Part shown: one piece after another, positions 3,427 through 62,641 of the stretch
Position numbering within the stretch: position 1 is the first letter of the stretch
Layout: the number at the start of each line of letters is the position of its first letter
From: an uncultured virus (IMG/VR IMGVR_UViG_3300022858_000986)
Lineage: Duplodnaviria > Heunggongvirae > Uroviricota > Caudoviricetes
DNA length: 64,000 nucleotides
Strand: one strand, 5' to 3'
Virus record (IMG/VR): IMGVR_UViG_3300022858_000986
Made by a program: the position numbers and the translations under genes
The notes under the pieces: model-generated
What the model was told of the DNA's origin: nothing
The model's input: the letters and a program-made list of their open reading frames with translations, nothing else
Databases searched by the model: none

Positions 3427-3436
3427 AGTTGCAAAT

Positions 3437-3471
3437 GCGGGTGTAGCTCAATCGGTAGAGCGTAACGTTGC
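3437..3471 (+). pseudogene. 5' half of interrupted tRNA-Gly
   Basis: GCGGGTG TA GCTC AATCGGTA GAGC GTAACG TTGC, broken inside the anticodon. Confidence 0.75.
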
Positions 3472-3543
3472 GGGTTTATTTTAATGGTAGAATAAATGAG
3501 TGCCACTCATTAGATGGGGATTCGATTTCCCCAATCCGCTCCA
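3470..3543 (+). tRNA. tRNA-Gly(GCC), divergent AT-rich
   Basis: Acceptor GCGGGTT/AATCCGC, U73+CCA, anticodon arm AATGA-GTGCCAC-TCATT, T arm GGGGA-TTCGATT-TCCCC; D-arm spacing slightly non-canonical. Confidence 0.8.
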
Positions 3544-3561
3544 AAAAAGTTTCGATTTTTT

Positions 3562-3594
3562 TTCTCCGCTATATATTTATAGTAGTAAGGAGAA
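3562..3594 (+). promoter_or_regulatory. SD-sequestering hairpin with candidate late promoter
   Basis: TTCTCC/GGAGAA and GCTATA/TATAGT pairings covering the SD of gene 3600; ATATTTATA at apex. Confidence 0.5.
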
Positions 3595-3599
3595 TAAAA

Positions 3600-4454
3600 A
3601 TGAAAAGAATATGTAAATGATGTAAAAAAGAAATTAAATTTAAAAATCTTCAACAATTTGGAGCCCATATTAGAAACTGCCCAAGCAATCCCGCAAAACA
3701 AAAAATAAATGAAAAAATAGCAAAAAAAAATACAAAAGAAAGAAAATTTTATAAGTTTAATTGTAAAAAATGCAATAAAGAATATATGGTTGAACTTACT
3801 AAAACCCAACTTAACAAAGGAAAATATAAAAAATTTTGTAGTAGAAAATGTGCAAACAGCAGACAACATTCAAAAGAGACAATACAAAAAATAACAAAAG
3901 CAAATACTGGCAAAAAATATTTAACAAAAGAAAATTATAAATTTACTAAAATAAAAATAAAACAATGTAAAGTATGTAATGCGCCATTTGTAGTCAAGAC
4001 ATCAAATTCCAAAAAAACATGTTGTTGTAAATTATGCTATGATATACAAAATAAATGGTCAAAAAACAAAGGCGAAAACAACCCAATGTATGGAAAGCCG
4101 CCACTAAATAAAAATTATGTAAGCGGTTATTTCTATAGTAATAAAAATAATAAAACATGGTATTACAAAAGTTCATACGAATTAAAGGCATTTAAAATTA
4201 TTGAAAATAATAAAAACATTCTTTCATACGAATATGAACCATTTAACATTCCATATGACAAGAATAACCATTCGACTATACCAGATTTTTTAGTAATATA
4301 TAAAAATAATAAAAAAAAATTAATAGAAATTAAGCCAAAAAGATTGTTAAATATATGAAACAATAACAAAAAAATAAATATAATGAAAGATTATTGTAAA
4401 AATAATAATATATTATTTGAAGTTTGGACAGAAAAGAAACTATTTACACAATAG
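3600..4454 (+). CDS. free-standing zinc-finger TnsA-like PD-(D/E)XK endonuclease (2 TGA=Trp)
   Basis: CK*C, FCSRKCAN, GENNPMYGK (NUMOD3-like), YEYEPFNIPY...PDFLV...LIEIKP...FEVWTE; 284 aa when TGA at 3618 and 4356 is read through. Confidence 0.8.
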
Positions 4455-4458
4455 AAGT

Positions 4459-4492
4459 GAGGTCGCCAGTTCGAACCTGGTCGTCCGCTCCA
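4459..4492 (+). pseudogene. 3' half of interrupted tRNA-Gly
   Basis: GAGGTC GCCAG TTCGAAC CTGGT CGTCCGC TCCA; acceptor strand pairs with 3437-3443. Confidence 0.75.
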
Positions 4493-4507
4493 AAACAAAC
4501 AAATAAC

Positions 4508-4745
4508 GGGGTAATTTGTAGGATACTCGTTGCGTTTCAAACAACAGAAAAAATAATATCGTTAATCTTGGATAGCGTTAGGAGAAACCTAACAAACAAT
4601 AGTGGATGAAATGCCACCCCAATGTAAGGCTGTCGCCAAGAACTGAAGGCCTAATATATTATTTTTCAACACTAATTTGTAAGATGAACGGCAAACTTGG
4701 TTACAAGAGGCTTTACAGGCCATCACTGAGTTTTCGCAATGCCCA
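4508..4745 (+). ncRNA. candidate structured RNA, unknown family
   Basis: GC-richer region without a convincing ORF, several helices, ends before a terminator. Confidence 0.4.
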
Positions 4746-4768
4746 ATAATCATTCAAAAGATTAGTAT

Positions 4769-4800
4769 AATGATGCACTCTTAAGTGCATCATTTTTTTT
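4769..4800 (+). terminator. intrinsic terminator
   Basis: AATGATGCACT-CTTA-AGTGCATCATT followed by T run. Confidence 0.85.
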
Positions 4801-10251: not shown

Positions 10252-11292
10252 ATGTTAAGATTTATCAAGTATAGAAGTATAGAAAATAGTTATAGAGAAA
10301 AATTTATCAACATGGTAAGGGAACATGAATATGATGCGCCAGATATTAAATGGGTTGCAACTGAGAAAATTCATGGCGGAAATTTTTCTGTGTGGGTTGA
10401 TAAAGACGAAATTAAACCAGCAAAGAGAACCAGTTTTATCGAAAAAGATGAATTCTTTTTTAATTATGAACTAATAATGGAAAAATATTCCGAAGATGCT
10501 AGAAAGCTATATAAATACTTTAAAAATATACATCCCAATCTTAATCAAATCGCTATATTTGGTGAACTGTTTGGTGGAACTTATCCACATCCAGATGTAT
10601 CAAATGATAAGTGTGGAAAAAAAGTACAAAAAGGCATATATTATTGCCCTCATAATGAATTATATATTTATGATATACTTTTAATATTTGACGATAATAC
10701 AAAAAATAGGCACGTTACTTGGACAGAATTAATAGAAAGTTTAACATATACAAAATCTAAACTTAAAACTCCAAAAGTTTTATTTATTGGTACATTTGAT
10801 GAAATGATAGCTTTACCTAATGATGAGCTGAGTGAAGTATATAAGGATTTCGATCTTCCACCAATAGAAGATAATATTATGGAAGGTTATGTATTTATGC
10901 CAGTAGAAGATTTATACTTTAGAGATAAATCTAGAGTTGCATTTAAGAATAAAAATAAAAAATGGGAAGAAAAAACCAAAGCACCCAAAAAGCAATTAAA
11001 AGAAGTCAATGAAGCAATCAAACCTATCGTTGAAGAAATCAGCATGTATGTTACTGAAAATAGATTACGTAACGTTTTATCTCACATTGGAGAAATTACA
11101 AACAAAGATTTTGGTTTACTTAACAAAGAATTTATTGCTGATGTTATGAAAGATTACATTGAAGAAAATGGTAGTGATGCATTAAATGTACTTGTCAAGA
11201 AAGACAGAAAATTAATAAATAAGAATGTTGGAAAACAAACTGCTCAATTAATTGGGGCAAATTTCCTAAATATACTGGATAATGAGTATTAG
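10252..11292 (+). CDS. RNA ligase, Rnl2 family
   Basis: Y.SIEN, TEKIHGGNFS (motif I), FGELFGG.YPH, VQKGIYY, EGYV, FKNKN. Confidence 0.9.
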   Translation: MLRFIKYRSIENSYREKFINMVREHEYDAPDIKWVATEKIHGGNFSVWVDKDEIKPAKRTSFIEKDEFFFNYELIMEKYSEDARKLYKYFKNIHPNLNQIAIFGELFGGTYPHPDVSNDKCGKKVQKGIYYCPHNELYIYDILLIFDDNTKNRHVTWTELIESLTYTKSKLKTPKVLFIGTFDEMIALPNDELSEVYKDFDLPPIEDNIMEGYVFMPVEDLYFRDKSRVAFKNKNKKWEEKTKAPKKQLKEVNEAIKPIVEEISMYVTENRLRNVLSHIGEITNKDFGLLNKEFIADVMKDYIEENGSDALNVLVKKDRKLINKNVGKQTAQLIGANFLNILDNEY

Positions 11293-12417: not shown

Positions 12418-12777
12418 ATGGCAAAAATTTTTATATTGGAAGATAACGATGAAAGAATTGCTCAATTTCGTAAGAACTTTAGAAATGCAGATTTAACTAT
12501 TGCAAAAGAAAGTAAAAAAGCAATAAAAATATTACGAAAAGAGAATCCTTTTGACTATATATTCTTAGACCACGACTTAGGCGGATTAGAAATGGTAGAG
12601 TCTGATGGGGGTACTGGGTATGAAGTGGCACAATGGTTGGCAAAAAATGCTTTAAAAAAACCAAAGTTTGCACTTTATGTGCATTCGTTAAATTTTCCTG
12701 GCGCAACTAACATAATTAGTGAACTTGGATATGGAAGTCATATACCATTTGTTTGGACAAAATTAATAAGTTTTTAA
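12418..12777 (+). CDS. receiver-like domain, cyclic-phosphate-processing (cREC) type
   Basis: IFILEDN..R, IFLDHDLG, TGYEVAQWL, VHS.N..G. Confidence 0.7.
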   Translation: MAKIFILEDNDERIAQFRKNFRNADLTIAKESKKAIKILRKENPFDYIFLDHDLGGLEMVESDGGTGYEVAQWLAKNALKKPKFALYVHSLNFPGATNIISELGYGSHIPFVWTKLISF

Positions 12778-12784
12778 ATAATTA

Positions 12785-13337
12785 GGGGGTGACCGGTTTT
12801 GACATGGAGACCCGCCTTATATGATTCACACTATGATGGCAACGAGCATACGAACTATGTTGCAAAACAAAATTAAACGGCAACAGCCAATTAATGGCGG
12901 CGTAAGCCACCCTTCGTGCGGTGTCTATTCTTTCTACACTGCAAATCGAAGTCATAATGAAGGATAATTGGTGACTACTAACAATGATAAAAACATGTAG
13001 AAACGCAATGTACCTGGCGAAGAGGGCGATGTATGGTTTGTTTATTTTTGATGCATCTGAAATTGTAAAATAAACTAAGTGTGTAAGAAAATTATAGTAG
13101 GCGACTTCGTGGACGTGGGTTCGATAAGTATAATTGTCGACCTGTATTGAAAGGTATAGTGAATAAATCTCTTCTGATTGACTTGGAAGTCCTACCATAG
13201 GACGACAGGGCGCAAGGGTAGTGCCAGCGTGAACGACTAAGCGAAGAGACATCCTTATGGGATGATGCGATAGTCTCGTCTCTACTATAAATGGTTTGAG
13301 AAAGTAGAGTTAAGATAACGTCCCACCACCTCCACCA
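12785..13337 (+). ncRNA. ssrA: tmRNA interrupted by an intron
   Basis: GGGGGTG/CACCTCC-ACCA acceptor with G3-U70; tag frame 12879-12905 GNSQLMAA*; T arm GTGGG-TTCGAT/T-CCCAC after splicing. Confidence 0.92.
13126..13320 (+). mobile_element. ORF-less group I intron in tmRNA T-loop (195 nt)
   Basis: P1 TCGAT/GTCGA with U-G at the 5' splice site, P7-like GACTA/TAGTC, P3-like TCTCTTC/GAAGAGA, terminal G; removal restores a 7-nt T-loop. Confidence 0.85.
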
Positions 13338-13370
13338 TTTGTTTGTATAGGCAAAAATAGTCTATATAAC

Positions 13371-13404
13371 TTTCTGCCTCCATACTTATATATGGAGGCA
13401 GAAA
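13371..13404 (+). promoter_or_regulatory. SD-sequestering hairpin with candidate late promoter
   Basis: Perfect 14-bp TTTCTGCCTCCATA/TATGGAGGCAGAAA burying GGAGG; ATACTTATA at apex. Confidence 0.75.
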
Positions 13405-13407
13405 AAA

Positions 13408-14142
13408 ATGAAAAAATATGAATGCGAAATATGCGGAGAAGAGTTTGAAAAGTGACAACAAAAAGCAAATCATGTTAGATGAAAGCATAAAAAAATAAAG
13501 TATAGTGAAGATGGCAGAAAAAATTTTTTAAATAGTGTTGATGCCCGATTTGGTAAAAAAATTACAAAAGAAATAATTTGTCCGATATGTAATGGACCAT
13601 TCGAAGTAACCGTTAGAGAAAATCGTCAAGACAAACATAAAAAATTTTGTAGTCAAAAATGTGCCAATGGCAGAAAGTGAAGTGATAAACAAAAAAAGAA
13701 GATTTCGGAAACACTTGCGACCCTTTACAAAGAAAATCCCGAAAAATTTGAAAACTTCATTGCATCAAATCAAAATAATGATAGATTTTCTTCAAAAATA
13801 GAAAGAGGGTTGGCAAAAAAATTAGAGCAATATGGCTTCAAGAGACATTGTAGAATTAAAACCGATGTGATTAATTTCGATATAGATATTGTATCAGAAG
13901 ACAAAAACATTTGGATTGAAAGTGATGGCCCGTATCATTTTAGGAAAATACATAAAAACCATGATTTCGAAAAATCACAATTAAGAGATTATGTGGAAAA
14001 TAATGAAGCCATAAATCAAAATAAATTATTAATTAGAATTGATAACGAAAAATATAAAGATATTGACATCCAAGTTAAATTAATATTAAATGAAATAAAT
14101 AAATGAGACAAAAAGATTGGAGAGGTTATTAAATTTTTTTAG
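13408..14142 (+). CDS. free-standing zinc-finger Vsr/DUF559-like endonuclease (4 TGA=Trp)
   Basis: C2H2 finger CEICGEEFEK*QQKANHVR*KH, FCSQKCAN, IDI...IESDGPYHF...RD...LIRI; 244 aa to TAG. Confidence 0.8.
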
Positions 14143-14161
14143 ATTTTAATAGGCAGGATAT

Positions 14162-14540
14162 GCGAGTGTCTTGTTAGATTAATTAAATAGACGTGAAAGC
14201 TAAAGATGACTAACCATCAACCCTAACATCAAAGGGAGAAAACGGCTTCTATCCCTTGCTATGGTGGCAAGATAAATTGAAGTGGGATTTGATTCCCTTA
14301 AAATCGTTGATGTACGTCTACAAATTTTGATAGTTGAATAAATACATATATCGAAAAAGGGTTTGTATTAGATATAGTGTAGTAGATATGGTGATTCTGA
14401 AACCCCGAAAGACCCGAAGCCGAAAGGTGAGTGAAGCAGTAAATCGCCATTATATTCGCAGTTCATCATAGATGATCGATTAAATATAATTTGATAGGTT
14501 ATTATGAGTCATTGAGATTATACAATCTACGCTCGCTCCA
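14162..14540 (+). ncRNA. candidate large structured RNA with tRNA-Gly-like acceptor end
   Basis: GCGAGTGT/ACGCTCGC + TCCA closes the region; multiple nested helices; no ORF in track. Confidence 0.6.
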
Positions 14541-15240
14541 TTTTTTTAAATTTTAATAGGAAGGTTATACAAGTGAAGTTAGATGCTCGCACACCAAAAA
14601 TGAAAATAAAATTAAATCACATTGAAGGTGTACATTTTTCTTTGGAATTTGACTCACCAAGACTTCCGACCAACAAATTAACTCCCTTAAAAAAAGAATT
14701 CAAGGCATCAAATGGTATTACTATTATTGCAGATATGTCCCCAGAAGTATGCAAAACATTAAACGAAGTTTATATACATGCTGGTGGATTCGAAAATAAA
14801 TGTAAATTTCATGCAACAAAAGAATTTATTTTCAAAATGTTTAACGCTCTGGATGAGTTTGCCAATAATGACTTCGGGTGGGATTAATGGAAAGATAATG
14901 TTTGATATAGGGCTATTAAAGAAAAGATTGAAAAATTTACAAAATTTAAAACTTACAATGGCTTACGACATATATGGTAATGAATTAAGTATAGTTTATA
15001 TACTAAAGGAGAAATAATGGAAACAACTATAGGGATAAACACGGACAAAATTAGGGCAATGATTAAGGAGCTTGAAAATTTAAATAAAAAACCACGTAGA
15101 AAAAAAATGTATGATATATACGGAAATCTTATACAAATTAGCGAAATATATCCCGAAAGCACAGGAAGTATTGTTACGAAATATTCAATGAAAAGCGATG
15201 GTGTTTTAGATTATCTTGATGAACCAATGGAGGGGCTTTG

Positions 15241-23262: not shown

Positions 23263-24801
23263 ATGTTTGAAATTAAAGGGAAATACGGGAAAGCTTTTGT
23301 TCATATAGACCATATAGACGAAACAACTATGGCACAAATTCACAAATTTACGAACAATCCTTTCTTCACAGAAGACATGCATATAATGCCTGACACACAC
23401 GCTGGCAAGGGTGCTGTAATCGGTTTCACTATGCCTTTGCATGGATTGAGCATAATTCCCAACATAATTGGAGTTGACGTTAACTGCGGAATGATTTCTA
23501 TAAGATTAAAAGATTTGACCAGAAAACAAAGAAACAGACTCAGAGCAGAAAATGAAAAATATATGTCAAAAATTGATACAAAAATAAGAGAGTTAATTCC
23601 TATGGGATTTAACATACATACAAATAACGATTTGGATTCAACAATATCACCCGAACGTATATTAAAAGATGTTGCCAAAGAGTCGAAAGAAGAAGCAATC
23701 AAATTTGCTCATAAATTCTATAACAAATTTGGAATAAAGATTATAGATAAAATGCCTGATTATACATCTGATAAATTTCCTAAAGATATATTCAAACGTT
23801 CTGGAGTAGATAGCAACAGATTCTATCAATCAATTGGAACTTTGGGTGGCGGAAATCATTTCATAGAAATTGGAAGGGACGAAGAAGATTCGGTTTGGTT
23901 AACAATTCATACTGGTTCAAGAAACTTTGGAAATTTAGTTGCAAAATACTGGCAAGGAATTGCTGTTGATGAGGCGAAGGGAATCAATGGTTCTATCGAA
24001 GACGAAGTAAAAAAATTAATTGAGAAACTAAAAGCTAAAAAACAATTTGATAAAATTCAAAAAGAAGTTGCGAAGTTAAGAAAGGGATATGAGAACATAA
24101 AGGTAAAAGATGCAGATTTAGCCGTATTGACTGGAGATAACGCCGCAGGATATTTCTTTGATATGATATACGCTGGAAAATACGCTGAATATAACAGAAA
24201 AACTATTCTTGAATTAATTACTGAAACATATAACTGGAATTATGATTACATTGTTAGGTCAAATCATAACTTCATTGACTTTAATGATATGATAATTAGA
24301 AAAGGAGCAATCGCATCTTATAAAGGTACATTAATGGTTATTCCTTTTAATATGAGAGACGGTTTGTTAATTGTTTCAGGAAAATCTAATCCTGCATGGA
24401 ACTATAGTTGTGCTCATGGTGCTGGACGTATTATGTCGAGAACTGAAGCCAAAAGAACTTTAAGCCTCCAAGAAGCAGAAGATAGTATGAGGGCGGCTAA
24501 TATTTATACCAAAGGCGTTCCGCTTGACGAAGCCCCTAAGGCTTACAAAGACGCAAAAATAATTGAAGACGCTCTGAAAGACACGATGAGTGTTGTATAT
24601 AGAGTTAAACCCGTTTTAAATATAAAAGATCTTTCGTCAGGGAAGAAATGGAAAAAAATAAGGAAAAATAAAATGAGAAAATCAAAAAAAATAGATACAA
24701 TAGATATAAATCGAGGTGTTTCTTTAGTAGCATTAAGAGATTGGTGCAACAAACAAATTAAAGCGAGCGCCAAAGACAAAGTGCGTACAGATATTGAGTA
24801 G
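23263..24801 (+). CDS. rtcB: RtcB RNA ligase
   Basis: MPDTHAGKG, GVDVNCG, GTLGGGNHFIE, HTGSR, HN, RKGA, HGAGR, DEAP.AYK. Confidence 0.95.
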   Translation: MFEIKGKYGKAFVHIDHIDETTMAQIHKFTNNPFFTEDMHIMPDTHAGKGAVIGFTMPLHGLSIIPNIIGVDVNCGMISIRLKDLTRKQRNRLRAENEKYMSKIDTKIRELIPMGFNIHTNNDLDSTISPERILKDVAKESKEEAIKFAHKFYNKFGIKIIDKMPDYTSDKFPKDIFKRSGVDSNRFYQSIGTLGGGNHFIEIGRDEEDSVWLTIHTGSRNFGNLVAKYWQGIAVDEAKGINGSIEDEVKKLIEKLKAKKQFDKIQKEVAKLRKGYENIKVKDADLAVLTGDNAAGYFFDMIYAGKYAEYNRKTILELITETYNWNYDYIVRSNHNFIDFNDMIIRKGAIASYKGTLMVIPFNMRDGLLIVSGKSNPAWNYSCAHGAGRIMSRTEAKRTLSLQEAEDSMRAANIYTKGVPLDEAPKAYKDAKIIEDALKDTMSVVYRVKPVLNIKDLSSGKKWKKIRKNKMRKSKKIDTIDINRGVSLVALRDWCNKQIKASAKDKVRTDIE

Positions 24802-31150: not shown

Positions 31151-32650
31151 ATGAACAAATTAATGTCAGCAATTCAAACAAATGATAGTAGAACGGCAAA
31201 CGATATGGTAACCAATTCGACTACAGATAGCGGGCTAATCGACCTATTTTTTACAGTTGCGGCTATGAGAAACAGACCTGATTCGGAAGTTATTACTCAA
31301 TTCTCACACGCCTTTGATGAAGACAATGAACTTGCAGTAAGGATGTTATTTTGGGCAAGAGATATTCGTGGCGGACAAGGTGAAAGAAAAGTATTTAGAA
31401 TAATTGCAAAGTGGCTTGCAAAAAATCACCAAGATGTAATTGAAAAAGTATTACATTTTATTCCCGAATATGGCAGATGGGATGATTTATTTGTATTAAT
31501 AGGTATTAGCAAATCATTGGACAGTTTAATTGCCAAAATAGCACAAAAAGGACTTACAGATAAAAATGTAAAAATGTTATGTGCGAAATGGCTTCCAAGA
31601 GAAAAATCTGCTAAGAAAAAAACTGCTATAACATTGGCCAAACTTTTCGGAGTAAGTAGAAAAGATTATAGAAAACTTTGTTCGGGTAACTCCCTTACAA
31701 TTGAAACACTTATGTCTTCGGGAAAATGGAAAGATATTAAGTTCGCAGAGATTCCATCTATAGCAATTAAAAAGTATAGGAAATCTCTTAGTCTTCACTT
31801 ACCAGACGAATTCGTAAAATTCTTGGAAAATGTTAAAAAGGGAACTGAAAAAGTTAATGCATCAACTTTATATCCATATGATATTATCAGACCTGCATTT
31901 AATAGTTCAATGTGGGGCGGCGAAGGCCGTAGTAAAGTGTTCGATATGGGTAAGCTGTCGCAAACAGATAGAGACTTACTTGACGCTCAATGGAACGCAC
32001 TTCCAGATTACTTTAAGGGTAATGATATAAATATTCTTCCTGTTATTGATACTTCTGGTTCTATGTTTTCGACATATGATGGCAACGTTGCGCCACTTGT
32101 TATCTCGGTAGCTTTAGGTCTTTACCTTGGCGAAAGAAACAATGGCAAGTTTAAGAATTACTTCATGACATTCACAAACGAACCAAGTGTTGTAAAAATG
32201 ACTGGTTCTACAATTGAAGATAAACTTAATAGCATGGCAAGGGCAAAAGTCGGATATGGCACAGACCTTGAGGCAATGTTCATAAGTTTGTTAAATGCCG
32301 GTATAAAAAATAAGCTTTCAGAAGAAGACATGCCTAAGGCATTGTTAATCGTATCTGATATGGAATTCAATCAATGTGTTGAAGCACCTTCAGATAATGC
32401 TTTTGCAATGATTGAAAGAATGTATAAGGAAGCTGAGTACGAAGTACCTACAATAGTTTTCTGGAGAGTTAATGTTCTTGGTTCAAATAGCAACTACCCA
32501 GTTAAATTTGAAAAAAACAATGTTTGCTTGATTTCTGGAGCAAGTCCTTCTAACTTGAAATATATCTTCTCGGCTGGGCAAATGAACCCAAGAGCAATTA
32601 TGATGAACGTACTTGATGATGTAAGGTACTCAGTAATTACATTGAAATAA
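31151..32650 (+). CDS. DUF2828-type TROVE/Ro-like protein with vWA domain
   Basis: ARDIRGGQGER, EYGRWDDL, AKWLPRE, LYPYDII, DTSGSM (MIDAS), SDMEF, VFW.V, ISG.SP. Confidence 0.85.
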   Translation: MNKLMSAIQTNDSRTANDMVTNSTTDSGLIDLFFTVAAMRNRPDSEVITQFSHAFDEDNELAVRMLFWARDIRGGQGERKVFRIIAKWLAKNHQDVIEKVLHFIPEYGRWDDLFVLIGISKSLDSLIAKIAQKGLTDKNVKMLCAKWLPREKSAKKKTAITLAKLFGVSRKDYRKLCSGNSLTIETLMSSGKWKDIKFAEIPSIAIKKYRKSLSLHLPDEFVKFLENVKKGTEKVNASTLYPYDIIRPAFNSSMWGGEGRSKVFDMGKLSQTDRDLLDAQWNALPDYFKGNDINILPVIDTSGSMFSTYDGNVAPLVISVALGLYLGERNNGKFKNYFMTFTNEPSVVKMTGSTIEDKLNSMARAKVGYGTDLEAMFISLLNAGIKNKLSEEDMPKALLIVSDMEFNQCVEAPSDNAFAMIERMYKEAEYEVPTIVFWRVNVLGSNSNYPVKFEKNNVCLISGASPSNLKYIFSAGQMNPRAIMMNVLDDVRYSVITLK

Positions 32651-33532: not shown

Positions 33533-36500
33533 TTGGAAAAGTTATTAAATTTACATGCTCATAGTTGCCACTCTATATTTGATGGTATTGCAAAACCTTA
33601 TGAGTATGCAAGATACATATCTGAAAACCCAGATAAGTTTTATCAAGCGTTATCTATATCAGATCACGGAACATTAAATGGTATGGTCGAAACATTTTGG
33701 GCGGCAAAGAAATACAAGCTTAAATACATACCATCATGCGAGATATACATGGCACCAACACCGGAAGACATTAGTGGTGTTAGATATCATTTAGTTTTAT
33801 TCGGCGTCAACGAAAAGGGAATGAACCAACTCGTTCAAATTAACAATATGGCAATCAAACGTGGGCAGATATTTAAAAGTAGAATTGGAAGGCAATATAC
33901 AATTATTACACCAGATATAATGAAAGAAGTTATCGGTAGAGAAAAGGGATTTCTAAAATGTTCTGGGGCATGTATTGGTGGATATTTTAATAGTGAAATT
34001 CTACATGACAGAATGGATGTTGCCGAAGAAAGGGTTGAACAATTAATCGATATATTCGGCGAAAGAAATGTATATGGTGAGTACCAAACATTTTATGATG
34101 AAGACGAAATGCAAAAAAAAGTTAATATGGGCGTAAAGAAACTATCGGAAAAATACAACTTACAAACAATTATTACTTCAGACGCACATGCATTAAAAAA
34201 AGAAGACCTACAATACAGCATGGTTGTAAGGGCTATGTCAATGAAAATGACTTTGAATGATTATATGGCAAAATTTAGTAGCGATGTTGTAAATTCAATT
34301 TATTACAAATCTGCCGAAGATTTTACGAATGATTTGGCAAAACATGATTTTGGCATTACTCAAGAAGATTTGAAAAATAGTTTAGAAACAACTGGCAAAA
34401 TATTCAAGTTAATACAATCATTTGACTTACATAAAGGGCAAAGTTTTGTATTTGAAGATGGCGACAAAAAGAAAAATAATAAAATGTTTCTTCAGTATTT
34501 AAGTGAAGGCTGGAAAGAAAAGATTAAAAATAAAATAGATACCAAAAACCACCCAAAATATAAAGCGAGATTGAAGCATGAAATTGACATACTGATGCAA
34601 AAGGGGTTTGTTGATTACTTTTTGGCCGTACGTAAAATTGTATTGGTGGCAGAAGAGAAAGGTATTATCAGAGGTGTTGGAAGAGGTAGTGCGGCAGGTT
34701 CGCTCGTTTCATATTTATTAGACATTACAAACGTTGACCCTATTAAACATAATTTATTATTTGATAGATTTATTAATGTAAAAAGAATGGATTTTCCAGA
34801 TATTGACGTAGATATTTCTAATAGAAAAGCAGTTGTAAAAATTATTCAAGAATTGTATCCAAATAAAGATGTAGTTGTTGTATCAAATAAAGGTAAATTA
34901 TTATTAAAGAATACATTGCAATATTTATGTAAAGTATTGGATGTTAAATATCCTAAAACATATTATGTTGATAATGGATTACATTTTTCAAAATTAATTG
35001 TTGCACATGAAATTGGGAATGGTCAGATTGATAAATTTATGGAGTTAAAGGATGCTATAAAATTATCAAGATGGATACTTGCGGAACATAAACTTGATTT
35101 GGCCGAAATGTTAAAGATACTCGTTGGCAATATATCGACCACAGGCGTACATGCTGGCGGCGTATGTATCTTAGAACATAACCAGGGAGTTGTACCTTAT
35201 ACGCCAATTGCAAATGCTGATTACCCATATGGCTCTGGATTATCGGAATCAGGTAGTAGTCTTGAGCTTGAATATGTTGGAGAAATTAAATTTGACTTTT
35301 TGGGTATTAAAACATTAAGAATATTTAAAGATATGGTTGGTAATCTTGCAAAGTGGGATAAAGAAAAAATGAAAGAACTTAATCATAATTTAATACGATT
35401 TAATAAAATTGATATTAACGACCCACTTGTGTACAAGTTTCTTAACCAAGCAGTTACAGAAGGCATATTTCAATTTGGTTCGTCGGGAATGCGCCGAATG
35501 TTAAAGATATTAAAGCCCAAAAACATGGAAGACTTGTCGGCGTTAAATGCCTTGTATAGGCCAGGTCCATTGGGTGCTGGTATGCATAAAGAAATAGCAA
35601 AAGCAAAAAAGAATAAAAGTTATGGCAAATCATTATGGGATAAGAAGATACTTAATTTAGTTGAAGATATAATTACGGTCACAGACTATCAAATATTATA
35701 TGAGGAACAAACAATGCTTATAGGCAAAGTGATTGCTGATTATTCCGACGAAGACTTAAATGACTTTAGAAAGTTTTTGAAAAAACCCAAAAGAGATGCG
35801 ACTTTTTTTGCAAATCAAAAAAGATTTTATGATGCATTTATGACAAATGGAAAACTTAAAGACATAAGCGAAAAAGCATTACAGACCTTGTGGGATAAGT
35901 TGGTTAAGTTTTCAAAATATTCGTTTAATAAATGTTTGGGCGGAGATACGCTTATTCAAACTCAAAACGGAGCAAAAGAAATAAAATATATAAAATCAGG
36001 CGATAAAGTTTTGTCTTATGATATTGATAATGATGATATTATTGAGGCCGAAGTTAAAGAATTACATAGAAATGGAAGGAAAAAATTATATAGTATTGAG
36101 GCCGATACTGGTGAAATAATAAAATGTACCTTAGACCATAAATTTTTAACCGTTGATGGAGAAATGCATTCACTTAAAGAAATATTAGATAATGATTTAG
36201 AATTAAAAAGTTTAGAAAAAGATAATATGAAGTTCTTAAAAGAAACATTAAAAGAGATTGGTTATAGACAGACATATGATTTGGAAATAAATCACAAAGA
36301 CCACAATTTTTTAATTGGAAATGATTTAATTGTAACCAGCAATAGTCATTCCATGAGTTATGCGTATAATTCATTTTTATGTGCTTATTTTGCGACATAT
36401 CATCCGTTGGACTGGTATGCAACATTATTGAAACATGAAAACCCAATCGAATTCATTCCAGTAATTAAAGAGCATATACAGAAAAGAAGTTTAGATATTA

Positions 36501-37282
36501 AAGTTATGCCTCCAAGACTTAACGTATCAAGGACTTATCCAATACCAGACCATAAAAATAATGCAATTATTTTGGGGACATCATTGATTAAGGGTGTTGG
36601 GCCAAAAGCTGGCACTGAGCTTAGTAGAGTAAATAAAGTTGGTAAAGATTATTTCACATTAGAAGAATTCTTAACAAGCCCTGATATTGACCACAGAAGG
36701 ATTAATAAAGGAGTAGTTGAAAAGTTAATTCTAATAGGTTACTTCGATGGTTTTGGCGTAGATAGACTTGAGTTATTGTTGAAGCTTGAGAAGACAAAAA
36801 TTACAAAGAAAAAACTTTTAGAATGGAAAGAAAGTGAAGAAGAAAATGATAAAGCATTTCTTGACAATAAATATGGTGGTATCAGAAATAAAGAAATGTT
36901 CTTATATAAGAGAGAATTATTAAACTTAGGCACAGCAGTTATGGAGCATCCAATTAAAGATGAACTTCCTAAAATAATTGAATTGTTAAAGAGTGAAATC
37001 CCTATAAATAAAAGAGATAGTGCAATACCAGTCGTTGTTAATAACATTGAACAAGTACGTGTAAAAGAAACAAAGAATGGTAAAAAATTCTTAGCAACAT
37101 CATTTAGAGATATTGACGGTAATTTATATTGGATGAATATTTGGGATAATCAAATTGAAGAACTTAAAGAAGACCATGATTTTGATTTAGAGAACCCAAA
37201 AGATTATAATAGAACGTGTGTTATGTTAATTGCAGATAGTAATGGTTGGAAAAATTTATTGAATTTTATAGCAATAGAATAA
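33533..37282 (+). CDS. dnaE: DNA polymerase III alpha subunit with intein
   Basis: PHP LHAHS..S..DG, SDHG; GRGSAAGSLV; PDIDVD; HAGG; KFDFLG; LYRPGP; FNK/SH; TTG start behind a TTGACA-N16-TATTAT promoter. Confidence 0.95.
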   Translation: MEKLLNLHAHSCHSIFDGIAKPYEYARYISENPDKFYQALSISDHGTLNGMVETFWAAKKYKLKYIPSCEIYMAPTPEDISGVRYHLVLFGVNEKGMNQLVQINNMAIKRGQIFKSRIGRQYTIITPDIMKEVIGREKGFLKCSGACIGGYFNSEILHDRMDVAEERVEQLIDIFGERNVYGEYQTFYDEDEMQKKVNMGVKKLSEKYNLQTIITSDAHALKKEDLQYSMVVRAMSMKMTLNDYMAKFSSDVVNSIYYKSAEDFTNDLAKHDFGITQEDLKNSLETTGKIFKLIQSFDLHKGQSFVFEDGDKKKNNKMFLQYLSEGWKEKIKNKIDTKNHPKYKARLKHEIDILMQKGFVDYFLAVRKIVLVAEEKGIIRGVGRGSAAGSLVSYLLDITNVDPIKHNLLFDRFINVKRMDFPDIDVDISNRKAVVKIIQELYPNKDVVVVSNKGKLLLKNTLQYLCKVLDVKYPKTYYVDNGLHFSKLIVAHEIGNGQIDKFMELKDAIKLSRWILAEHKLDLAEMLKILVGNISTTGVHAGGVCILEHNQGVVPYTPIANADYPYGSGLSESGSSLELEYVGEIKFDFLGIKTLRIFKDMVGNLAKWDKEKMKELNHNLIRFNKIDINDPLVYKFLNQAVTEGIFQFGSSGMRRMLKILKPKNMEDLSALNALYRPGPLGAGMHKEIAKAKKNKSYGKSLWDKKILNLVEDIITVTDYQILYEEQTMLIGKVIADYSDEDLNDFRKFLKKPKRDATFFANQKRFYDAFMTNGKLKDISEKALQTLWDKLVKFSKYSFNKCLGGDTLIQTQNGAKEIKYIKSGDKVLSYDIDNDDIIEAEVKELHRNGRKKLYSIEADTGEIIKCTLDHKFLTVDGEMHSLKEILDNDLELKSLEKDNMKFLKETLKEIGYRQTYDLEINHKDHNFLIGNDLIVTSNSHSMSYAYNSFLCAYFATYHPLDWYATLLKHENPIEFIPVIKEHIQKRSLDIKVMPPRLNVSRTYPIPDHKNNAIILGTSLIKGVGPKAGTELSRVNKVGKDYFTLEEFLTSPDIDHRRINKGVVEKLILIGYFDGFGVDRLELLLKLEKTKITKKKLLEWKESEEENDKAFLDNKYGGIRNKEMFLYKRELLNLGTAVMEHPIKDELPKIIELLKSEIPINKRDSAIPVVVNNIEQVRVKETKNGKKFLATSFRDIDGNLYWMNIWDNQIEELKEDHDFDLENPKDYNRTCVMLIADSNGWKNLLNFIAIE
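35933..36343 (+). mobile_element. mini-intein (137 aa, no endonuclease)
   Basis: FNK|CLGGDT...TLDHKF...TYDLE...HNF...TSN|SHS. Confidence 0.9.
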
Positions 37283-47490: not shown

Positions 47491-49023
47491 ATGAAGCAAT
47501 GAAAAATAGGAGAGATTAGAAATGGATTCGAGGTCCTTCCCAAAGACAAGAGAAAAAAAATGTTATTATTATGTGATGATGTGCGAAGTCACTCAGGCAT
47601 TGCAACAATGGGAAGGGAGATAATATTTCAAACTTGTCATTATATTAATTGAGTTAACCTTGCCGCATTAATTAATCATCCAGAACATGGAAAAGCAATT
47701 GATTTAAGCGAATCAACATCAAAAGAAACTGGTGTCCCAGATGCAAGTGCATTTGCTTTTCCACATAATGGATACGGAAATCCAGACGTACTTAGGGCTC
47801 TTCTTGCAAAAGAGAATCCTGTGGCAATATTACATTACACCGACCCAAGATTTTGAGGTTGGTTGTATTCAATGGAACACGAAATAAGACAAAACATTCC
47901 AATTTTTTACTACAATATATGAGACGACCTGCCATACCCACACTATAATAAAAAGTTCTATGCGAGTTCAGATTTAATCATGAACATATCAAAGCAGACC
48001 GTTAACATTGTTAAAAATGTTTTAGGTGAAAAGAACTATGTTGAAATTAATAGAGACGGTACGACAAGTAAAAAGAAAGTAAGTGATTACGTTGATCATC
48101 CAGTACATGTTTCGTATGTGCCACATGGAATTAATACAGACATATTTAAATCAATTGACAAAAGTGATTCCGAATATGTTGCGTTTTCCGATACCATTTT
48201 GAAAAATAAAAAATATGATTTCATTGTATTATTTAACAATAGAAATATTAGAAGAAAAATGCCTTCAGATTTAATGGCCGCATATAAATTTTTCTGTCAA
48301 GAAATAGGGCCAGAGAAAGCAAAAAAATGTTTGCTATTATATAAAACCACACCAGTAGATAATAATGGAACAGATTTACCTGTCGTACATAAAGACATAA
48401 TTGGCGAAGAGTATAACGTACAATTCTTACACCAGGCTTTAACACCAAAGATAATGAATATATTATATAATATGGTAGATGTAACAATGGGAATTAGTTC
48501 CGCAGAGGGATTCGGATTAGCAACGGCAGAAAGTGTTATGGCAGGAACTCCAATTATTCTTACTTCAATTGGCGGATTGCAAGACCAATGTAAATTTGAA
48601 GATGAAAAAGGAAACTGAATTGATATGAGCACAAGCCATCCAACGAATTCAGACAAACGATATACAAAACACGGCTCTTGAGCATTTCCGGTATGACCAC
48701 AACTTAATCTTGTTGGTTCGCCACCAACGCCTTATATTTATGATAGTAGGGCAAGTATCAAAGATATTGCCGAAAGATTATTAGAAGTATATAATATGGA
48801 TTGAATTGACAGAAAAAGTGTTGCACTTAAAGGGAGAGAGTGGATGAGTTCTCCTGAATGCGGTATGTCAGCCGGAGAAATGGGGCATAGATTTATGTAT
48901 GATATGAATTTTGTTTTAGATGGATGAAAGCCAAGAAATAAAATAAATATATATAAAGCGGTTACAAAAAAACAAAAAATAAAGTCAGGATTATATAATC
49001 CGATTAAAGAACAGTGACAATAA
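47491..49023 (+). CDS. GT4-family glycosyltransferase (10 TGA=Trp)
   Basis: DD.R.HSG.ATM, YVPHGI, NNRNIRRK, EGFGL...ES...GTPII...GGLQDQ; 510 aa to TAA. Confidence 0.85.
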
Positions 49024-49036
49024 AAGGAGAAAGCAA

Positions 49037-49813
49037 ATGTTATATTACACAATTGGAATGATTGTTGCATTTTTCGTTATAATATATTTCGTATCATATT
49101 TTATAAAGAAAGCAATGATTGAAAGAGCAAAGATATTATTCAGTATTTCACACTTAGGCGATAGAAGTATTGAAGAAGACAAATTACGTAAAATGGGACT
49201 AAAGCCCGCAAATATGCGTAAAAAATATGGGCACGATGCAACGCTTGGAACGGTATCAACTGAACTATTGAACAAGACAAGAAGGGATATTTTAAAGATA
49301 AAGAATATTTTTAATTGGAAAAAAGATTTTATATTTGGCAATGCATTTATATACAAAAAATATTGTGCAATGATAGGAACGATCGAAGTGAATAAAATAG
49401 AAGAGCAAATTTACGCACTTCAGGAAAAACAGGCAAAAATACAAATAAGCCAAGTAATGCAAGGATATGGTCTTCATGATAATGAAAGAAATAAAATCTT
49501 GGCTGGTTTAATTGAGCCAGATGGAATTGAAGATAAAGTTTATTCAAGAAAATCAAGAAGAGATTTTTGAGAAGAATGTCATGAGCCTAATAAAGAAGCT
49601 GATTGTGTGTGCGGAGCAGGTGCAAAGCCAGAACCAACTTTGCCTGCGCCCAAAATGGGCGACAAAACTTTAGACAACATAAATATTTTAACAGAAGGGG
49701 CATTCGAAGATATTCAAAGTGTTGGCAAGCAAATGAGAGAAGAATTATTAGAGCAAGATGATATTGATGTTAATGAAGAGTTAAAAGAAAAAGGGATAAC
49801 GGTGGAGGATTAA
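49037..49813 (+). CDS. membrane-anchored hypothetical protein (1 TGA=Trp)
   Basis: N-terminal TM segment; track ORFs 49037 and 49607 are in one frame. Confidence 0.55.
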
Positions 49814-49970
49814 TTATGGGAAAAAGTAGACAAAATTGGTTAATACTATTGGCAAAAACAAAAAGTCAACTTGATTTGCTAATTGAAGCCGGAATGATAC
49901 GAATAAAAATTCCAGGAGTGCTTAAAAGTAAAACTGAACAAAACAATTTTTTAAATAGTGGAGGCGATAT

Positions 49971-51260
49971 ATGTTATGTGTAATACAAGCGTGTGTTTCG
50001 TCTTTTTCTGGATATGGAGCGCATTCTCGGGACATAGTAAGAGCCGTAATTAAAAAATATCCTAATTGAGATATTAAAATTAATGATACACGTTGAGGTA
50101 ATACGCCCAAAAATGCATTAATAAAAGGTAAGGATGATGAAATAATAAATAGAATATTAAAAGGCCCACTTAATAGACAGCCAGATATTTTTATTCAAAT
50201 TACTGTTCCTAACGAGTTTAATCCAGTTGGTAAATATAATATAGGAATTACTGCTGGAATTGAAACAACCAAATGTGCGCCAGTATGGTTAGAGGGGTGT
50301 AATAGAATGGATTTAATTATTACAACTTCCGTACATTCTAAATCAGTTTTAGAACAAACCGAATGGGAAATGAAAAATGAAAAAACTGGTCAACCTATGG
50401 GTAAATTACAATTAAAATCAAAAATTGATATTTTGTTTGAAGGTATTGACAAAAACATTTATCATAAAACTGATAAAAGCTATGAAGTTGTGGATAAATT
50501 AATGGATAGAATTCCTGAACAATTTGCATTTCTTTTCGTTGGGCATTGATTGGCAGGCGATCTTGGACATGACAGAAAAGATGTTGGTATGATGATTAAA
50601 ACATTTTGTGATACATTCAAAGGTAAGTCAAAAAAGCCAGCATTAATTTTAAAAACAAGTGGCGCTTCTTATTCAATTATTGATAGAGAAGAAATATTAA
50701 AAAAAATAAATGATATACGCACAAATGATAATTTGCCGAATGTATATTTGTTACATGGTGGCATAACGGATGACGAAATGAATGGGTTATATAATCACAA
50801 GAAAGTAAAAGCAATGGTGTCATTTACACACGGAGAAGGTTACGGTCGTCCGTTTGCCGAATTTGCAGTTTCAGAAAAACCAATCATTGCTTCAAATTGA
50901 TCAGGCCATGTTGACTTTTTAAATCAAAGTTATTCAATCTTATTGCCTGGCGAATTAAAGCAAGTTGATAAGTCTGTAGTTTGAAAGGATATTGTAATTC
51001 AAGATTCAAGTTGATTTTACATTAACTATTTTTATGCATCGCAGGCAATCAAAGATGTATTTGAAAATTATGACAATTATAAGATTAGAGCAAAGAAGCA
51101 AGCAGATTTAATAAATGAAAAGTTTACGAGAGAAAAGATGGAAGATAAATTATATGAAATATTTGAAGAAAATATTCCTGAATTTCCTGCTGAAGTTCAA
51201 ATAAAATTACCATCAATTAAAAAATTAAAAAAACCTACAATGATTAAAAAAGGAGAATAG
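49971..51260 (+). CDS. GT4-family glycosyltransferase (6 TGA=Trp)
   Basis: SGYG..SRD, GH*L.G..G.DRKD.G, GEGYGRPFAE, ASN*SGHVDFL; GGAGG SD. Confidence 0.85.
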
Positions 51261-51414
51261 AAATGGAAACAATTACAGATGTTGAAAAATTAGAAAATAT
51301 AGCAAAATGCGCATTAGATAAGGCGGGAGATTGCGAAGACCCAGATTTAGTATACGAATGGCTTAATTCTTATGTATATGTTAGAGAACTTTTACGTGAA
51401 TTGGATGGCGAGTA

Positions 51415-51906
51415 ATGGGAAAAGAACAAAAAAAAGAAATGGAAAAAATTATTTGCCCTGTATGTAAAGTTAATTTCTGTTACAAAGATGATTATCCAGA
51501 TGGTTCAGCAGGATATCTTTGTTACAATTGTGGAATGACAAGCCATAGCAAACTTATCCCAGATACAGAATATCTTGAAAAAGCAATAATTTCAACTCCA
51601 GAATTTATTAATGATAATATGTTCCTTGATGAAAAAAGAAATATATATTGGTTCTTATCAACTATAAGAACGGTTACTGGAATAGTGTTTCCAGAGCCAG
51701 ACGACTCATTTGATGGATGGAATTGGGCGGTTGCAAAGATTGTTAGTATATCCGAAGAAGAGCAAAAAGATTATCCAATACCTGGAAAAGATGGCGAGTT
51801 CTACACAAATCGATTGGCAATTGATGATGCAACACATTTTAGAAAGAATAAATTTTATGACGCCTGTCAAGAACTAGGCGGAATACTAAAGACTCATCAG
51901 GAGTAA
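51415..51906 (+). CDS. zinc-ribbon-containing conserved phage protein
   Basis: CPVC...C, CYNCG. Confidence 0.6.
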   Translation: MGKEQKKEMEKIICPVCKVNFCYKDDYPDGSAGYLCYNCGMTSHSKLIPDTEYLEKAIISTPEFINDNMFLDEKRNIYWFLSTIRTVTGIVFPEPDDSFDGWNWAVAKIVSISEEEQKDYPIPGKDGEFYTNRLAIDDATHFRKNKFYDACQELGGILKTHQE

Positions 51907-51908
51907 TT

Positions 51909-52334
51909 ATGGCAATTGTAGGGTCGAAATATGGGAACATCAATCAGACGTTTAATGCAAATTTTTATAACAAGGGCAATCTTGATTTAACAAAACATCT
52001 TTTCGAGGCACTCGATTCTGCTGGCATTGAATATCTCAAAACTACACTCCCATGTGGCCCAATTGGCAATTCAAAATTAGACAGGTTTTGTGTGAAGTCA
52101 ATCAAACTTAAAACGATATGGAAGGACAATGGCCGACCAATTCCATGAGATTATATTATTGACGAAGTAAGGCACAGATGTTGTTCTAAACATAAAACCC
52201 CAATATTCCTCAGCCTTACGAGTGTCGTGATGTATGATCCAAAAGATTTTTCGTCAATGGGTGGTTTAATCATTAGGTTTCACGAAGGGTTTGGGGATAA
52301 ACCATCATACACGATTTATGGAAAACGATGTTAA
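51909..52334 (+). CDS. hypothetical protein (1 TGA=Trp), C-terminal YTIYG motif
   Basis: Read-through of TGA 52146 gives 62 further codons ending PSYTIYGKRC-TAA. Confidence 0.6.
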
Positions 52335-52366
52335 AAACTTATACAATATACGGAAAGGAGTTATAA

Positions 52367-52834
52367 GTGGGGGTTTCTTCTGTATTATTTAATATATTGG
52401 CCGATTATCAAAAGGAATATTCGTATACCTTATTGCCTGTTGCCGATGATATACCTACCACATACACAATGCCGAACGTAGGTAAAGAAATTAGTAAAGA
52501 AACATACAAGTTAAAACGAATACGATATAATTTTTCAATTTCCAATGATACTAAATGATGAAGATTTAAGTATATAATTAATAATAATATAACCAAACTC
52601 TTATTTGAATTTGCCGAGAAAGTTATACTTATACAAAAGACAAAAGTTTTAATGGATGTGGGCCATGATAGTATGAGTTTTACATTTGAAATTATGGCGT
52701 ATCCAACAAATTCACAAAATGCAATAAAATTTGCAAAACAAAATGAAATTGTAAAAGCACCAAAAGTTCCGATACAAAAAGGTTACACAATCTTTGGACA
52801 GATTATTGATATTAAACAAGGAGAAAAAAGATGA
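52367..52834 (+). CDS. hypothetical protein (tandem TGA-TGA internal), YTIFG motif
   Basis: Track ORFs 52367 and 52652 in one frame; 3' end uncertain. Confidence 0.5.
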
Positions 52835-53898: not shown

Positions 53899-54318
53899 TG
53901 GAAAATAGAACAACAACTTCGGTGCCATCTATATTTTGCCACAAGTGTGGTGTAAATTTAAGTAAGGCGACGCAAATTATATACATTGATGAGCTTCCTA
54001 CGTGCCAATGATGTGTGCAAAAATTAAATAATGAAATTTTAAAGAAATAATAAGAAAATATTATAATTTGTCCAATAATTATATAATAGTAGTATAGGAG
54101 TAAAATATGAACATAAACGAAAGATTTAATAAAGAGAGAGCAAAGAAATTATTTGTCGATAATTTGCCCGACAATTCATTTGTTGAGTATTGCCCAAAAT
54201 GTAATTTTCAAATGCATCCCGAAGTTCATTCTTTAAAATTTTGTCCGGCGTGTAAAAGTGGATTGGTTGGAATTGTATTAACGAAAGAAATGAGAATATT
54301 AATTAGCGGAGAATAAGT

Positions 54319-54936: not shown

Positions 54937-55146
54937 GAAATATGAAAACATTTTATGATAAGAATGGCAGACATATTCCCAAAGAGTGAAATGAATTTGG
55001 AAAAGAAACACTTGACATTTTAAGGAATATACACGATAAATGAATTGACAAGGGATATAGTCCGGAAGAAATTGCCAAGGAAATTGGCAGACTTAATGCC
55101 TTAGTAAGGTATGAGCTTCCGTGACGAATAAAAAATAAGGATATAT

Positions 55147-56860: not shown

Positions 56861-56875
56861 AAAATAGGAGATTTT

Positions 56876-57271: not shown

Positions 57272-57280
57272 GTTATAATA

Positions 57281-62632: not shown

Positions 62633-62641
62633 GAGAATAGG

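Follow-up and report, generated by a model that had tools for sequence, protein, structure and literature searches.

The 64,000-nucleotide (nt) DNA of the uncultured virus IMGVR_UViG_3300022858_000986, hereafter the window, carries at positions 14162-14540 an element that is a non-coding, plus-strand module of a large TGA-recoded phage. We propose here, with a probability of about 0.55 for this explanation as a whole, that the core of the element (14347-14462) is a divergent member of a conserved H-type pseudoknot RNA of about 90-100 nt, to which we give the name M. Judged from sequence comparison, M matches no Rfam 15 family and would best be classed as a new family of small RNAs from phage tRNA islands, with the element as a divergent member of that family within a mobile-element-rich module beside an intron-bearing transfer-messenger RNA (tmRNA) gene. 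The original prediction had instead read 14162-14540 as one RNA of about 380 nt with a tRNA-Gly-like acceptor stem as its closure, an RNase P-processed or glycylated tRNA mimic; in that model RNase P would act at G14162, and the RNA would end in U-CCA and be glycylated or otherwise handled like a tRNA. Its observation is partly confirmed and its interpretation partly supported, and for the glycine-tRNA mimic we find no evidence.

The family was recognised through a second allele of the locus, the 1580-nt metagenome contig L009 from a co-occurring strain. Despite the divergence between the two alleles, two islands are conserved, AAGGGTTTGTA and CTGAAACCC, and a gapped pattern made of both matches 25 viral and 37 bacterial or archaeal loci, with about three chance matches estimated in the viral set. 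Most of the pattern matches share a motif of about 90-100 nt, CGAAA-AAGGGUUUGUAGUA-(Pa 5')-AANC-CUG-AAACCC-YG-(optional hairpin)-AAUACCCAUUAAGAUCGNCAGU-AA-(Pa 3'), whose consensus parts are a 5' GAAAAA box, helix P1 (GGGUUU with AAACCC), a crossing helix Pa, a 3-bp CUG/CAG pairing and the invariant loop AAUACCCAUUAAGAUCGNCAGU. Because this first pattern fixed P1, a second search was made with the loop box, which found 27 viral loci; all 15 of those scanned match the model of the family. Two covariance models were used. With model R1, matches are obtained at 23 of 24 non-self viral loci and at 9 of the 18 scanned genome loci, but at no member of a set of 50 unrelated endonuclease loci, and model R2 was trained on 27 sequences, none from the window or L009 locus. 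Canonical members score 52-103 bits.

Covariation carries the structural argument. Among 15 sequences, double changes occur at all eight pairs of Pa and all four pairs of the optional hairpin, and the covariation score is 0.375 against 0.108 in shuffled alignments (reached in 0 of 500) and at most 0.122 with the partners slid. With 33 aligned rows the overall score is 0.370 against 0.112 (again 0 of 500), and P1, which lies outside the covariance-model structure, is 98.4% paired with double changes at four of its six pairs, one of them GC in 20 rows and AU in 9. Its variants include GGGUUU/AAACCC, AGGUUU/AAACCU, GGAUU/AAUCC and GGGUUC/GAACCC, and AGCAUU/AAUGCU in Vibrio phage KVP40. Since P1 crosses Pa, the fold is an H-type pseudoknot. 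Thus two pairings first listed from the window alone now have comparative support: the helix 14388/14442 is Pa, and the possible pseudoknot GGGTTT/AAACCC is P1.

The copy of M in the window is detected by both models, at 25.2 bits with R1 (E 0.0047 over the window) and 34.1 bits with R2 (E 3.5e-5 over 92 kb). Its skeleton is intact, with P1 and Pa in the family order, the CUG/CAG pairing, the 5' box CGAAAAA and UAA before the 3' strand of Pa (Table 1). Rfam 15 gives nothing over M at E<=10 in L009 and nothing at gathering score in 18 loci, blastn of canonical M against GenBank phages returned one weak match only, and a word-based literature search, which did not compare sequences, turned up no account of M, although candidate-RNA catalogues (e.g. 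PMC10690425) may list it. The pattern also met a different element, AAGGGTTTGTAAAACAAACCCTTAAACCCTGAAACCC preceded by GGGTTTG(T/C)AAGTACAACTTGTTT, in Acidobacteriota genomes (L089-L092, L095, L101, L119, L121); it is a chance match, occurs in several copies per contig and looks like an interspersed palindromic repeat.

Exactly one match was found in each of five large viral records (161-356 kb), and M is co-oriented with the tRNA genes, separated from the preceding tRNA by a few bases and from the following one by 0-20 nt; tRNAs flank it in L062, L071, L074, L081, L068, L070, L067 and L085. In KVP40 (L151, NC_005083.2 174012-174114) an M of 55.8 bits, unannotated in RefSeq, fills the 103-nt gap between tRNA-His and tRNA-Cys. 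Fifty-one Vibrio phage records share this conserved stretch, and in 16 of them at least 80% of the 201-nt query, tRNA ends included, is covered. M is strongly covarying, without an Rfam family and present in a cultivable phage, which opens its function to experiment. Bacterial copies are sporadic and lie in prophage-like surroundings, with one match in four of the five genomes scanned, all of which carry a pattern match. That M might be a core RNA in the bacterial family to which the host genome G007 (a Tenacibaculum) belongs was rejected, as only 1 of 151 genomes sampled from that family matches.

The architecture of the L009 allele suggests that M is a target of homing endonucleases. L009 is 99.5% identical to the window over 14411-15061 and differs from it by one base over 14216-14320, whereas 14320-14405 is strongly diverged. 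The sequence that it carries in place of CGAAA comprises the 3' part of a canonical M, G+C-rich hairpins and an open reading frame (ORF) for a 213-amino-acid (aa) endonuclease of HNH/EndoVII type (phrog_1035 endonuclease VII, E 6.7e-19; phrog_2255 HNH), which ends in shared sequence (..KFDPKPKGE-TGA, window 14431-33). A complete canonical M (91.8 bits with R1; 80.8 bits with R2, L009 being outside its training set) stands upstream of the endonuclease, and the old 3' half of M (loop, CAG, AAUCGCCAU) is stranded downstream without its Pa partner. The same order of old 5' half, intact gene, endonuclease and old 3' half is found at the tRNA-Gly locus of the window (3436-4493), where a cassette interrupts a tRNA-Gly gene at position 33. 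Such endonucleases would bring along a replacement copy of the conserved RNA gene into which they home; M would be one such gene, and the window would represent the endonuclease-free allele. If so, these two salt-lake phage alleles would capture a homing endonuclease invading a structured RNA gene other than a tRNA gene, together with a replacement copy, which argues that the RNA matters to the phage. Among 50 loci with relatives of the L009 endonuclease there is no similarity to the element and no M, and no group I intron reaches gathering score in the 20 of them that were scanned. The closest relative (43% identity) lies within a tRNA cluster of the 210-kb phage record L010, where an odd tRNA-like gene with a long insert (2296-2373) and a TAG-suppressor tRNA with a CUA anticodon (1558-1632) adjoin the endonuclease.

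The existence of both ORF-bearing and ORF-less alleles is also what one would expect of an unrecognised self-splicing intron within the 5' portion of the downstream gene. Such an intron would fit the GNRA loops and the G+C-rich hairpins, which stand in an A+T-rich genome, and also the frame that stays open from 14498 on into the downstream gene, with three substitutions at its third positions. However, the group I model Intron_gpI (RF00028) has no match at E<=10 in a 421-nt search of the element or in L009, while in a like search the intron of the same phage's tmRNA, used as a positive control, scores 28.5 bits (E 1.1e-5 when 13100-13345, 246 nt, is searched alone). The L009 insertion bears no intron signature, the S-like box GAUAUAGU is missing from L009, and no pairing of an intron P1 with an internal guide sequence was found. 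In addition, M elsewhere sits between intact tRNAs and not within genes, and the open frame requires a TGA codon while the downstream gene itself uses TGG. We consider an intron very improbable.

Several points weigh against placing the window copy in the family. Its scores of 25-34 bits are weak beside the 52-103 bits of canonical members, and the E-values of the models are rough owing to a shortened calibration. The first pattern was drawn from the window itself, so that P1 identity in the 25 and 37 loci holds by construction. The loop box AAUACCCAUUAAGAUCGNCAGU is only partly kept: the window reads AAAGACCC-GAAG-(hairpin)-UGAGUGAAGCAGU (AAAGACCC...AAGCAGU), in which AA.ACCC, AAG and CAGU are retained and the rest is replaced and carries the hairpin GCC-GAAA-GGU. 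The copy does not lie between tRNAs, and there is no tRNA within 9 kb. The left domain, the A+U-rich hairpin and the closure of the element are without homologues, and 14162-14540 as one molecule is not supported. M may also have been described already outside Rfam.

From the same loss of the loop box one might conclude that the window copy could be a decayed one, and the element a non-functional scar in which the remains of an endonuclease cassette and a decayed M are kept only through recency. Such a scar would explain why the last nine codons of the L009 endonuclease ORF (DPKPKGE and TGA) are in frame in the window and why a duplicated gene start flanks the element, and it would suit a phage rich in mobile elements (the tmRNA intron, inteins and endonuclease ORFs). 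Yet the window is no simple deletion derivative of L009: 14320-14405 has diverged strongly and still the skeleton of P1, Pa and CUG/CAG is intact. Partial loss of the loop box is likewise seen in L081 and L106, and the variant without AUCG in L081 belongs to a 356-kb phage record of 100% CheckV completeness. Furthermore, the strand-specific fold signal persists, and the element sequence is identical in the 17 metagenome runs listed, many of which may be source samples. A scar is thus rather unlikely, and a divergent M remains our preferred explanation.

As to function, M would be an important conserved RNA gene that in tRNA arrays is co-transcribed with the tRNAs. Cuts by tRNA-processing enzymes at its borders may then free a small stable RNA, which would bind a conserved partner through the invariant loop; we give this route a chance somewhat below even. 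A separate canonical terminator follows M in L098, as for a small RNA gene. The main alternative is a cis-acting element, a pseudoknot that senses a ligand or factor and in which Pa and the following U-rich tract attenuate or permit transcription of the tRNA or gene that follows, which in this phage would be the 104-aa gene at 14573. Among small riboswitches, H-type pseudoknots with an invariant loop are a typical form. A U-rich tract after the 3' strand of Pa belongs to the R2 consensus and is seen in L064 (CCCGCCC-AUUUUUU), L071 and L081, and ORFs with a ribosome-binding site (RBS) start 10-60 nt after M in L064, L074, L085 and L061, features that fit an attenuator as well as a free small RNA and so count against the latter. 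However, most copies lie between tRNAs with 0-20 nt to the next one and have no expression platform, the terminator in L098 is a separate one, and the genes downstream of M are unrelated to one another, which makes cis action unlikely. Still more speculatively, M might represent a new class of functional RNA of large phages and a homing target, either a small pseudoknot directed at a universal host machine, be it RNA polymerase, the ribosome or an enzyme of tRNA processing or repair, or a self-cleaving punctuation element of tRNA operons, and in this phage extended to an RNA of about 380 nt whose closing stem and U-CCA admit it to tRNA-end pathways (RNase P, CCA enzyme, RtcB/Rnl2 repair).

M shares features with several known systems. 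PreQ1, SAM-II and fluoride riboswitches and the HK022 put antiterminator RNAs are similar to M in size and also combine two crossing helices with an invariant single-stranded loop. In contrast to these, M matches no Rfam riboswitch model and stands in the middle of tRNA arrays, not in a 5' untranslated region or behind a promoter. The T4 RNAs rnaC and rnaD have tRNA-like ends and are cut out by tRNA-processing enzymes. Known as the stable RNAs species 1 and 2, they lie with segB, a free-standing homing endonuclease gene, in a phage tRNA cluster (T4 annotation) and resemble M in being small and in this setting, but M has no acceptor-like ends of its own; R1 (filters off) and R2 found nothing significant in the T4 tRNA region (68500-74500; best 11 bits, E 0.48). 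Among the known occupants of phage tRNA islands are large enigmatic RNAs such as GOLLD and ROOL (RF02032, RF03087), described as structured, pseudoknot-rich RNAs of phages and prophages with unknown function, often near tRNA islands (10.1101/2024.12.08.627333, PMC5737381). M is likewise a structured pseudoknot RNA of phages and prophages near tRNAs and occupies the same niche; in L074 the two share a tRNA array, with a GOLLD RNA (193 bits) about 390 nt upstream of M. M is far smaller (about 95 nt against 600-800 nt), however, and matches neither in sequence or model, and nothing suggests that it forms a cage. Finally, the tmRNA gene 835 nt upstream is split in its T loop, and M, as a conserved RNA gene, would be a homing site just as tRNA and tmRNA genes are. 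The difference is that the L009 insertion in M lacks an intron signature and its endonuclease brings a replacement gene copy, as at the tRNA-Gly locus.

The acceptor-like closure on which the tRNA-Gly mimic was built poses a separate question. The 7-bp stem GCGAGTG/CGCTCGC, the discriminator U and CCA are all present, with a pair probability of 1.00 for the first five of the 8 bp of the full closing stem. In addition, G1-C72, C2-G71, G3-C70, U73 and CCA equal the ends of the phage's own tRNA-Gly and of its 3' fragment, and two repeat copies bound the module almost exactly. Closures of this class (7 bp with at most one G-U, then N-CCA, at 250-500 nt) are common, however, with 198 in the window (61 on the plus and 137 on the minus strand) against a mean of 110 in 20 block shuffles, so that closure alone is not evidence; the closure of the element is unusual within its class solely by its G+C-richness. 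The word CGCTCCA occurs five times against 2.06 expected, a count that 6 of 100 shuffles reach, and on the plus strand it has three sites (3537, 4486 and 14534). Neither an acceptor-like closure nor a CCA of its own was found among the M members examined, which sit between real tRNAs. A more general outer closing stem P0 of the family was also rejected, stems of at least 4 bp occurring in 64% of members against 51% of mismatched controls.

The 5' strand of the closure lies in the flanking repeat, which is longer than first recognised (36 nt, 86% identity, spacing 407). GCGAGTG lies within copy 1, and copy 2 reads ACAAGTG at the same place, where the downstream gene has its GTG start. Outside these two sites neither the 20-mer TTTTTTTARATTTTAATAGG nor the 10-mer TTTTAATAGG is found in the 64 kb, so that the repeat is a local duplication and not a general promoter. 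L009 and the runs X21 and X24 carry T>C at 14509 and 14533, opposite A14209 and A14165 of the long-range helices; the change at 14533 gives A.C against A14165, without compensation where the 5' strand is covered (the L009 contig stops at 14216). Both L009 substitutions fall in 3' strands that would be redundant in that allele, a placement that homing with a replacement copy would explain and that would also suit the mimic. Derivation of the ends from tRNA-Gly was rejected, p rising from 0.043 and 0.074 with full ends to 0.45 and 0.29 with the acceptor ends removed; the interior is thus similar to tRNA-Gly at chance level, and 25% of genomic windows score as high. A link to glycine through TGA as Gly (code 25) was dropped, since TGA stands at a conserved Trp of the GDP-mannose dehydratase. 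As had been noted from the start, there is no D arm or T loop, and ARAGORN and the Rfam tRNA and tmRNA models are negative. The closure stands as a pairing and lacks comparative support; it may close the whole module but is not a feature of the M family, and a tRNA-Gly mimic is improbable. The methodological lesson is that a tRNA-like closure with CCA can arise by chance and that comparative data should decide.

That the element is an unrecognised structured RNA of the plus strand is upheld. Over its whole length the plus strand folds at -91.4 kcal/mol (z -2.51, 0 of 100 shuffles as good) and the minus strand gives z -0.58. The left domain folded alone is the best-folded piece, with a minimum free energy (MFE) of -35.9 kcal/mol (z -3.67, 0 of 200 shuffles). 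Sliding 150-nt fold z-scores are insensitive, giving +0.97 to -2.5 for the true tmRNA and its intron. All pairings listed originally are present in the sequence, with very different probabilities when 14162-14540 is folded in isolation: 0.91-1.0 for CTTGC/GCAAG, 0.4-0.6 for ATGGTGATT/AATCGCCAT (14388/14442), about 0.35 for TAGACGT/ACGTCTA (14188/14314), 0.13 for GGGTTT/AAACCC (14359/14400) in a model that forbids knots, and 0.01 for CATCAAC/GTTGATG, because an alternative register with CATCAAA wins; the GCC-GAAA-GGT hairpin is present at 14419-14428. A second proposed pseudoknot, GATGACT (14205) with AGTCATT (14507), exists as a pairing but has a probability of 0.02 and costs 1.9 kcal/mol when forced; it is nested within the closing stem and crosses only TAGACGT/ACGTCTA.

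Known families do not account for the element. Rfam 15 gives nothing over it at gathering score or E<=10, the Rfam tRNA and tmRNA models have no match in 14140-14560 at E<=10, and ARAGORN reports neither tRNA nor tmRNA there, its tRNA-Gly at 3470 being the only one. Neither a tmRNA model match nor a tRNA-like domain nor a tag reading frame was found at the element, and GOLLD and ROOL do not match it; the detection of GOLLD in L074 shows that the model works here. Suspected resemblances to RNase P RNA, 6S, SRP and Y RNA failed inspection and have no Rfam match, and an origin as a decayed duplicate of the downstream gene was dropped for lack of similarity. Homologue searches by blastn against GenBank phages, in IMG/VR through the downstream protein, the Rnl2 ligase and the upstream ORF, and with exact 22-27-mers returned the phage itself only. 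Searches with the left domain gave no homologue beyond this phage lineage, no resemblance to other loci, and no second occurrence of its 25-mer in GTDB genomes. Together with the A+U-rich hairpin, it would be a lineage-specific addition to M, as the lack of homologues suggests.

Table 1. Features of the M locus, its flanks and the tRNA-Gly locus in the window
Feature	Positions	Strand	Remarks
Divergent M copy	14347-14462	+	Located by R1 and R2 model scores; core of the element
5' box of M	14352-14358	+	CGAAAAA
P1 of M	14359-14364 with 14400-14405	+	GGGTTT/AAACCC
Pa of M	14388-14396 with 14442-14450	+	ATGGTGATT/AATCGCCAT
CUG/CAG of M	14397-14399 with 14437-14439	+	
Extra hairpin of M	14419-14428	+	GCC-GAAA-GGU
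L009 insertion site	14405-14411	+	About 790 nt replacing CGAAA (14406-14410)
Left structured domain	14186-14322	+	Closed by 7-bp TAGACGT/ACGTCTA; holds hairpins CTTGC/GCAAG and GGGA/TCCC
A+U-rich long hairpin	14450-14490	+	AUUAUAUU...AAUAUAAU enclosing GUUCAUC-AUA-GAUGAUC; between M and the 3' end; in MFE and centroid structures
Closing stem, 5' strand	14162-14169	+	GCGAGTGT; pairs with 14529-14536
Closing stem, 3' strand and TCCA	14529-14540	+	ACGCTCGC at 14529-14536, then TCCA and a T7 run; C at 14533 in the variant allele
Direct repeat, copy 1	14133-14168	+	Diverged duplicate of T-run, RBS and start of the downstream gene; last 7 nt, GCGAGTG, form the 5' strand of the closure
Direct repeat, copy 2	14540-14575	+	Starts at the A of CCA; holds RBS-like AGGAAGG and the GTG start at 14573
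104-aa gene	14573-14887	+	Function not assigned; GTG start 14573; start region duplicated as repeat copy 1
Endonuclease-like ORF	13408-14142	+	735 nt; 244 aa if four in-frame TGA are Trp; between tmRNA gene and element
tmRNA gene	12785-13337		Nearest RNA gene to the element
cREC_REC protein gene	12418-12777		Cyclic-phosphate-processing receiver domain
Rnl2-type RNA ligase gene	10252-11292		
tRNA-Gly 5' half	3436-3468		Ends at position 33
Intact tRNA-Gly(GCC)	3470-3543		
NUMOD3/TnsA-like endonuclease ORF	3600-4454		Two TGA codons
tRNA-Gly 3' half	~4459-4493		T arm, CGTCCGC-T-CCA; ends ..CGTCCGCTCCA

The surroundings of the element are phage DNA. The 42-kb viral record G001 is identical to the window across 12700-14700, and near-identical sequence is present in metagenome runs from salt-lake and marine sources, among which no RNA run was listed. 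Between the tmRNA gene and the element, which had been proposed to be co-transcribed, lie the 735-nt endonuclease-like ORF and a perfect 14-bp hairpin, TTTCTGCCTCCATA/TATGGAGGCAGAAA (13371-13404, between the tmRNA 3' end and the ORF), followed on the plus strand by an A run, not a T run, and dominating the local fold scores (z -6.9). The ORF matches phrog_1271 and phrog_559 ('HNH endonuclease', E 1e-6 and 7e-5) and has a KKFCSxKCAN region in common with the endonuclease ORF of the tRNA-Gly locus. On the other side, the 104-aa protein has no family match and finds only itself among 5.8 billion proteins. In-frame TGA codons cluster in the endonuclease ORFs and, at 47-64 kb (47491-64000), in genes for glycosyltransferases and other sugar genes, whereas most other genes (the 1-45000 side) have none and two terminate at TGA, a distribution that suggests stage-dependent recoding. 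TGA aligns with a conserved Trp position of the GDP-mannose dehydratase, and no suppressor tRNA was found within the 64-kb window.

The tmRNA gene follows a sigma-70-like promoter (10/12) that ends at 12782, and a group I intron of 195 nt interrupts its T loop (13126-13320; U at -1 and G as the last base), so that the Rfam tmRNA model (RF00023) matches 12792-13127 only (47.9 bits) and the 3' exon TCCCACCACCTCCACCA restores the T stem and the G3-U70 acceptor. Intron-form tmRNA genes are already known, with 883 unique sequences and the intron always in the T loop (PMC11915505). An RNA-repair set surrounds the tmRNA and M loci, consisting of the Rnl2 ligase, the cREC_REC protein, RtcB and a DUF2828/DUF7788 protein (10252-11292, 12418-12777, 23263-24801 and 31151-32650). 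Inteins are present in a DnaE-type polymerase (33533-37282) and in the GDP-mannose 4,6-dehydratase (60494-62632), the latter carrying a DUF559/MTES_1575-like endonuclease domain. Directly after the tRNA-Gly 3' fragment, a non-coding stretch of about 300 nt (4494-4800), over which Rfam gave nothing at E<=5 in a 1.4-kb, possibly filtered search, folds at z -3.00 (0 of 100 shuffles) and ends with a strong terminator hairpin and a T run.

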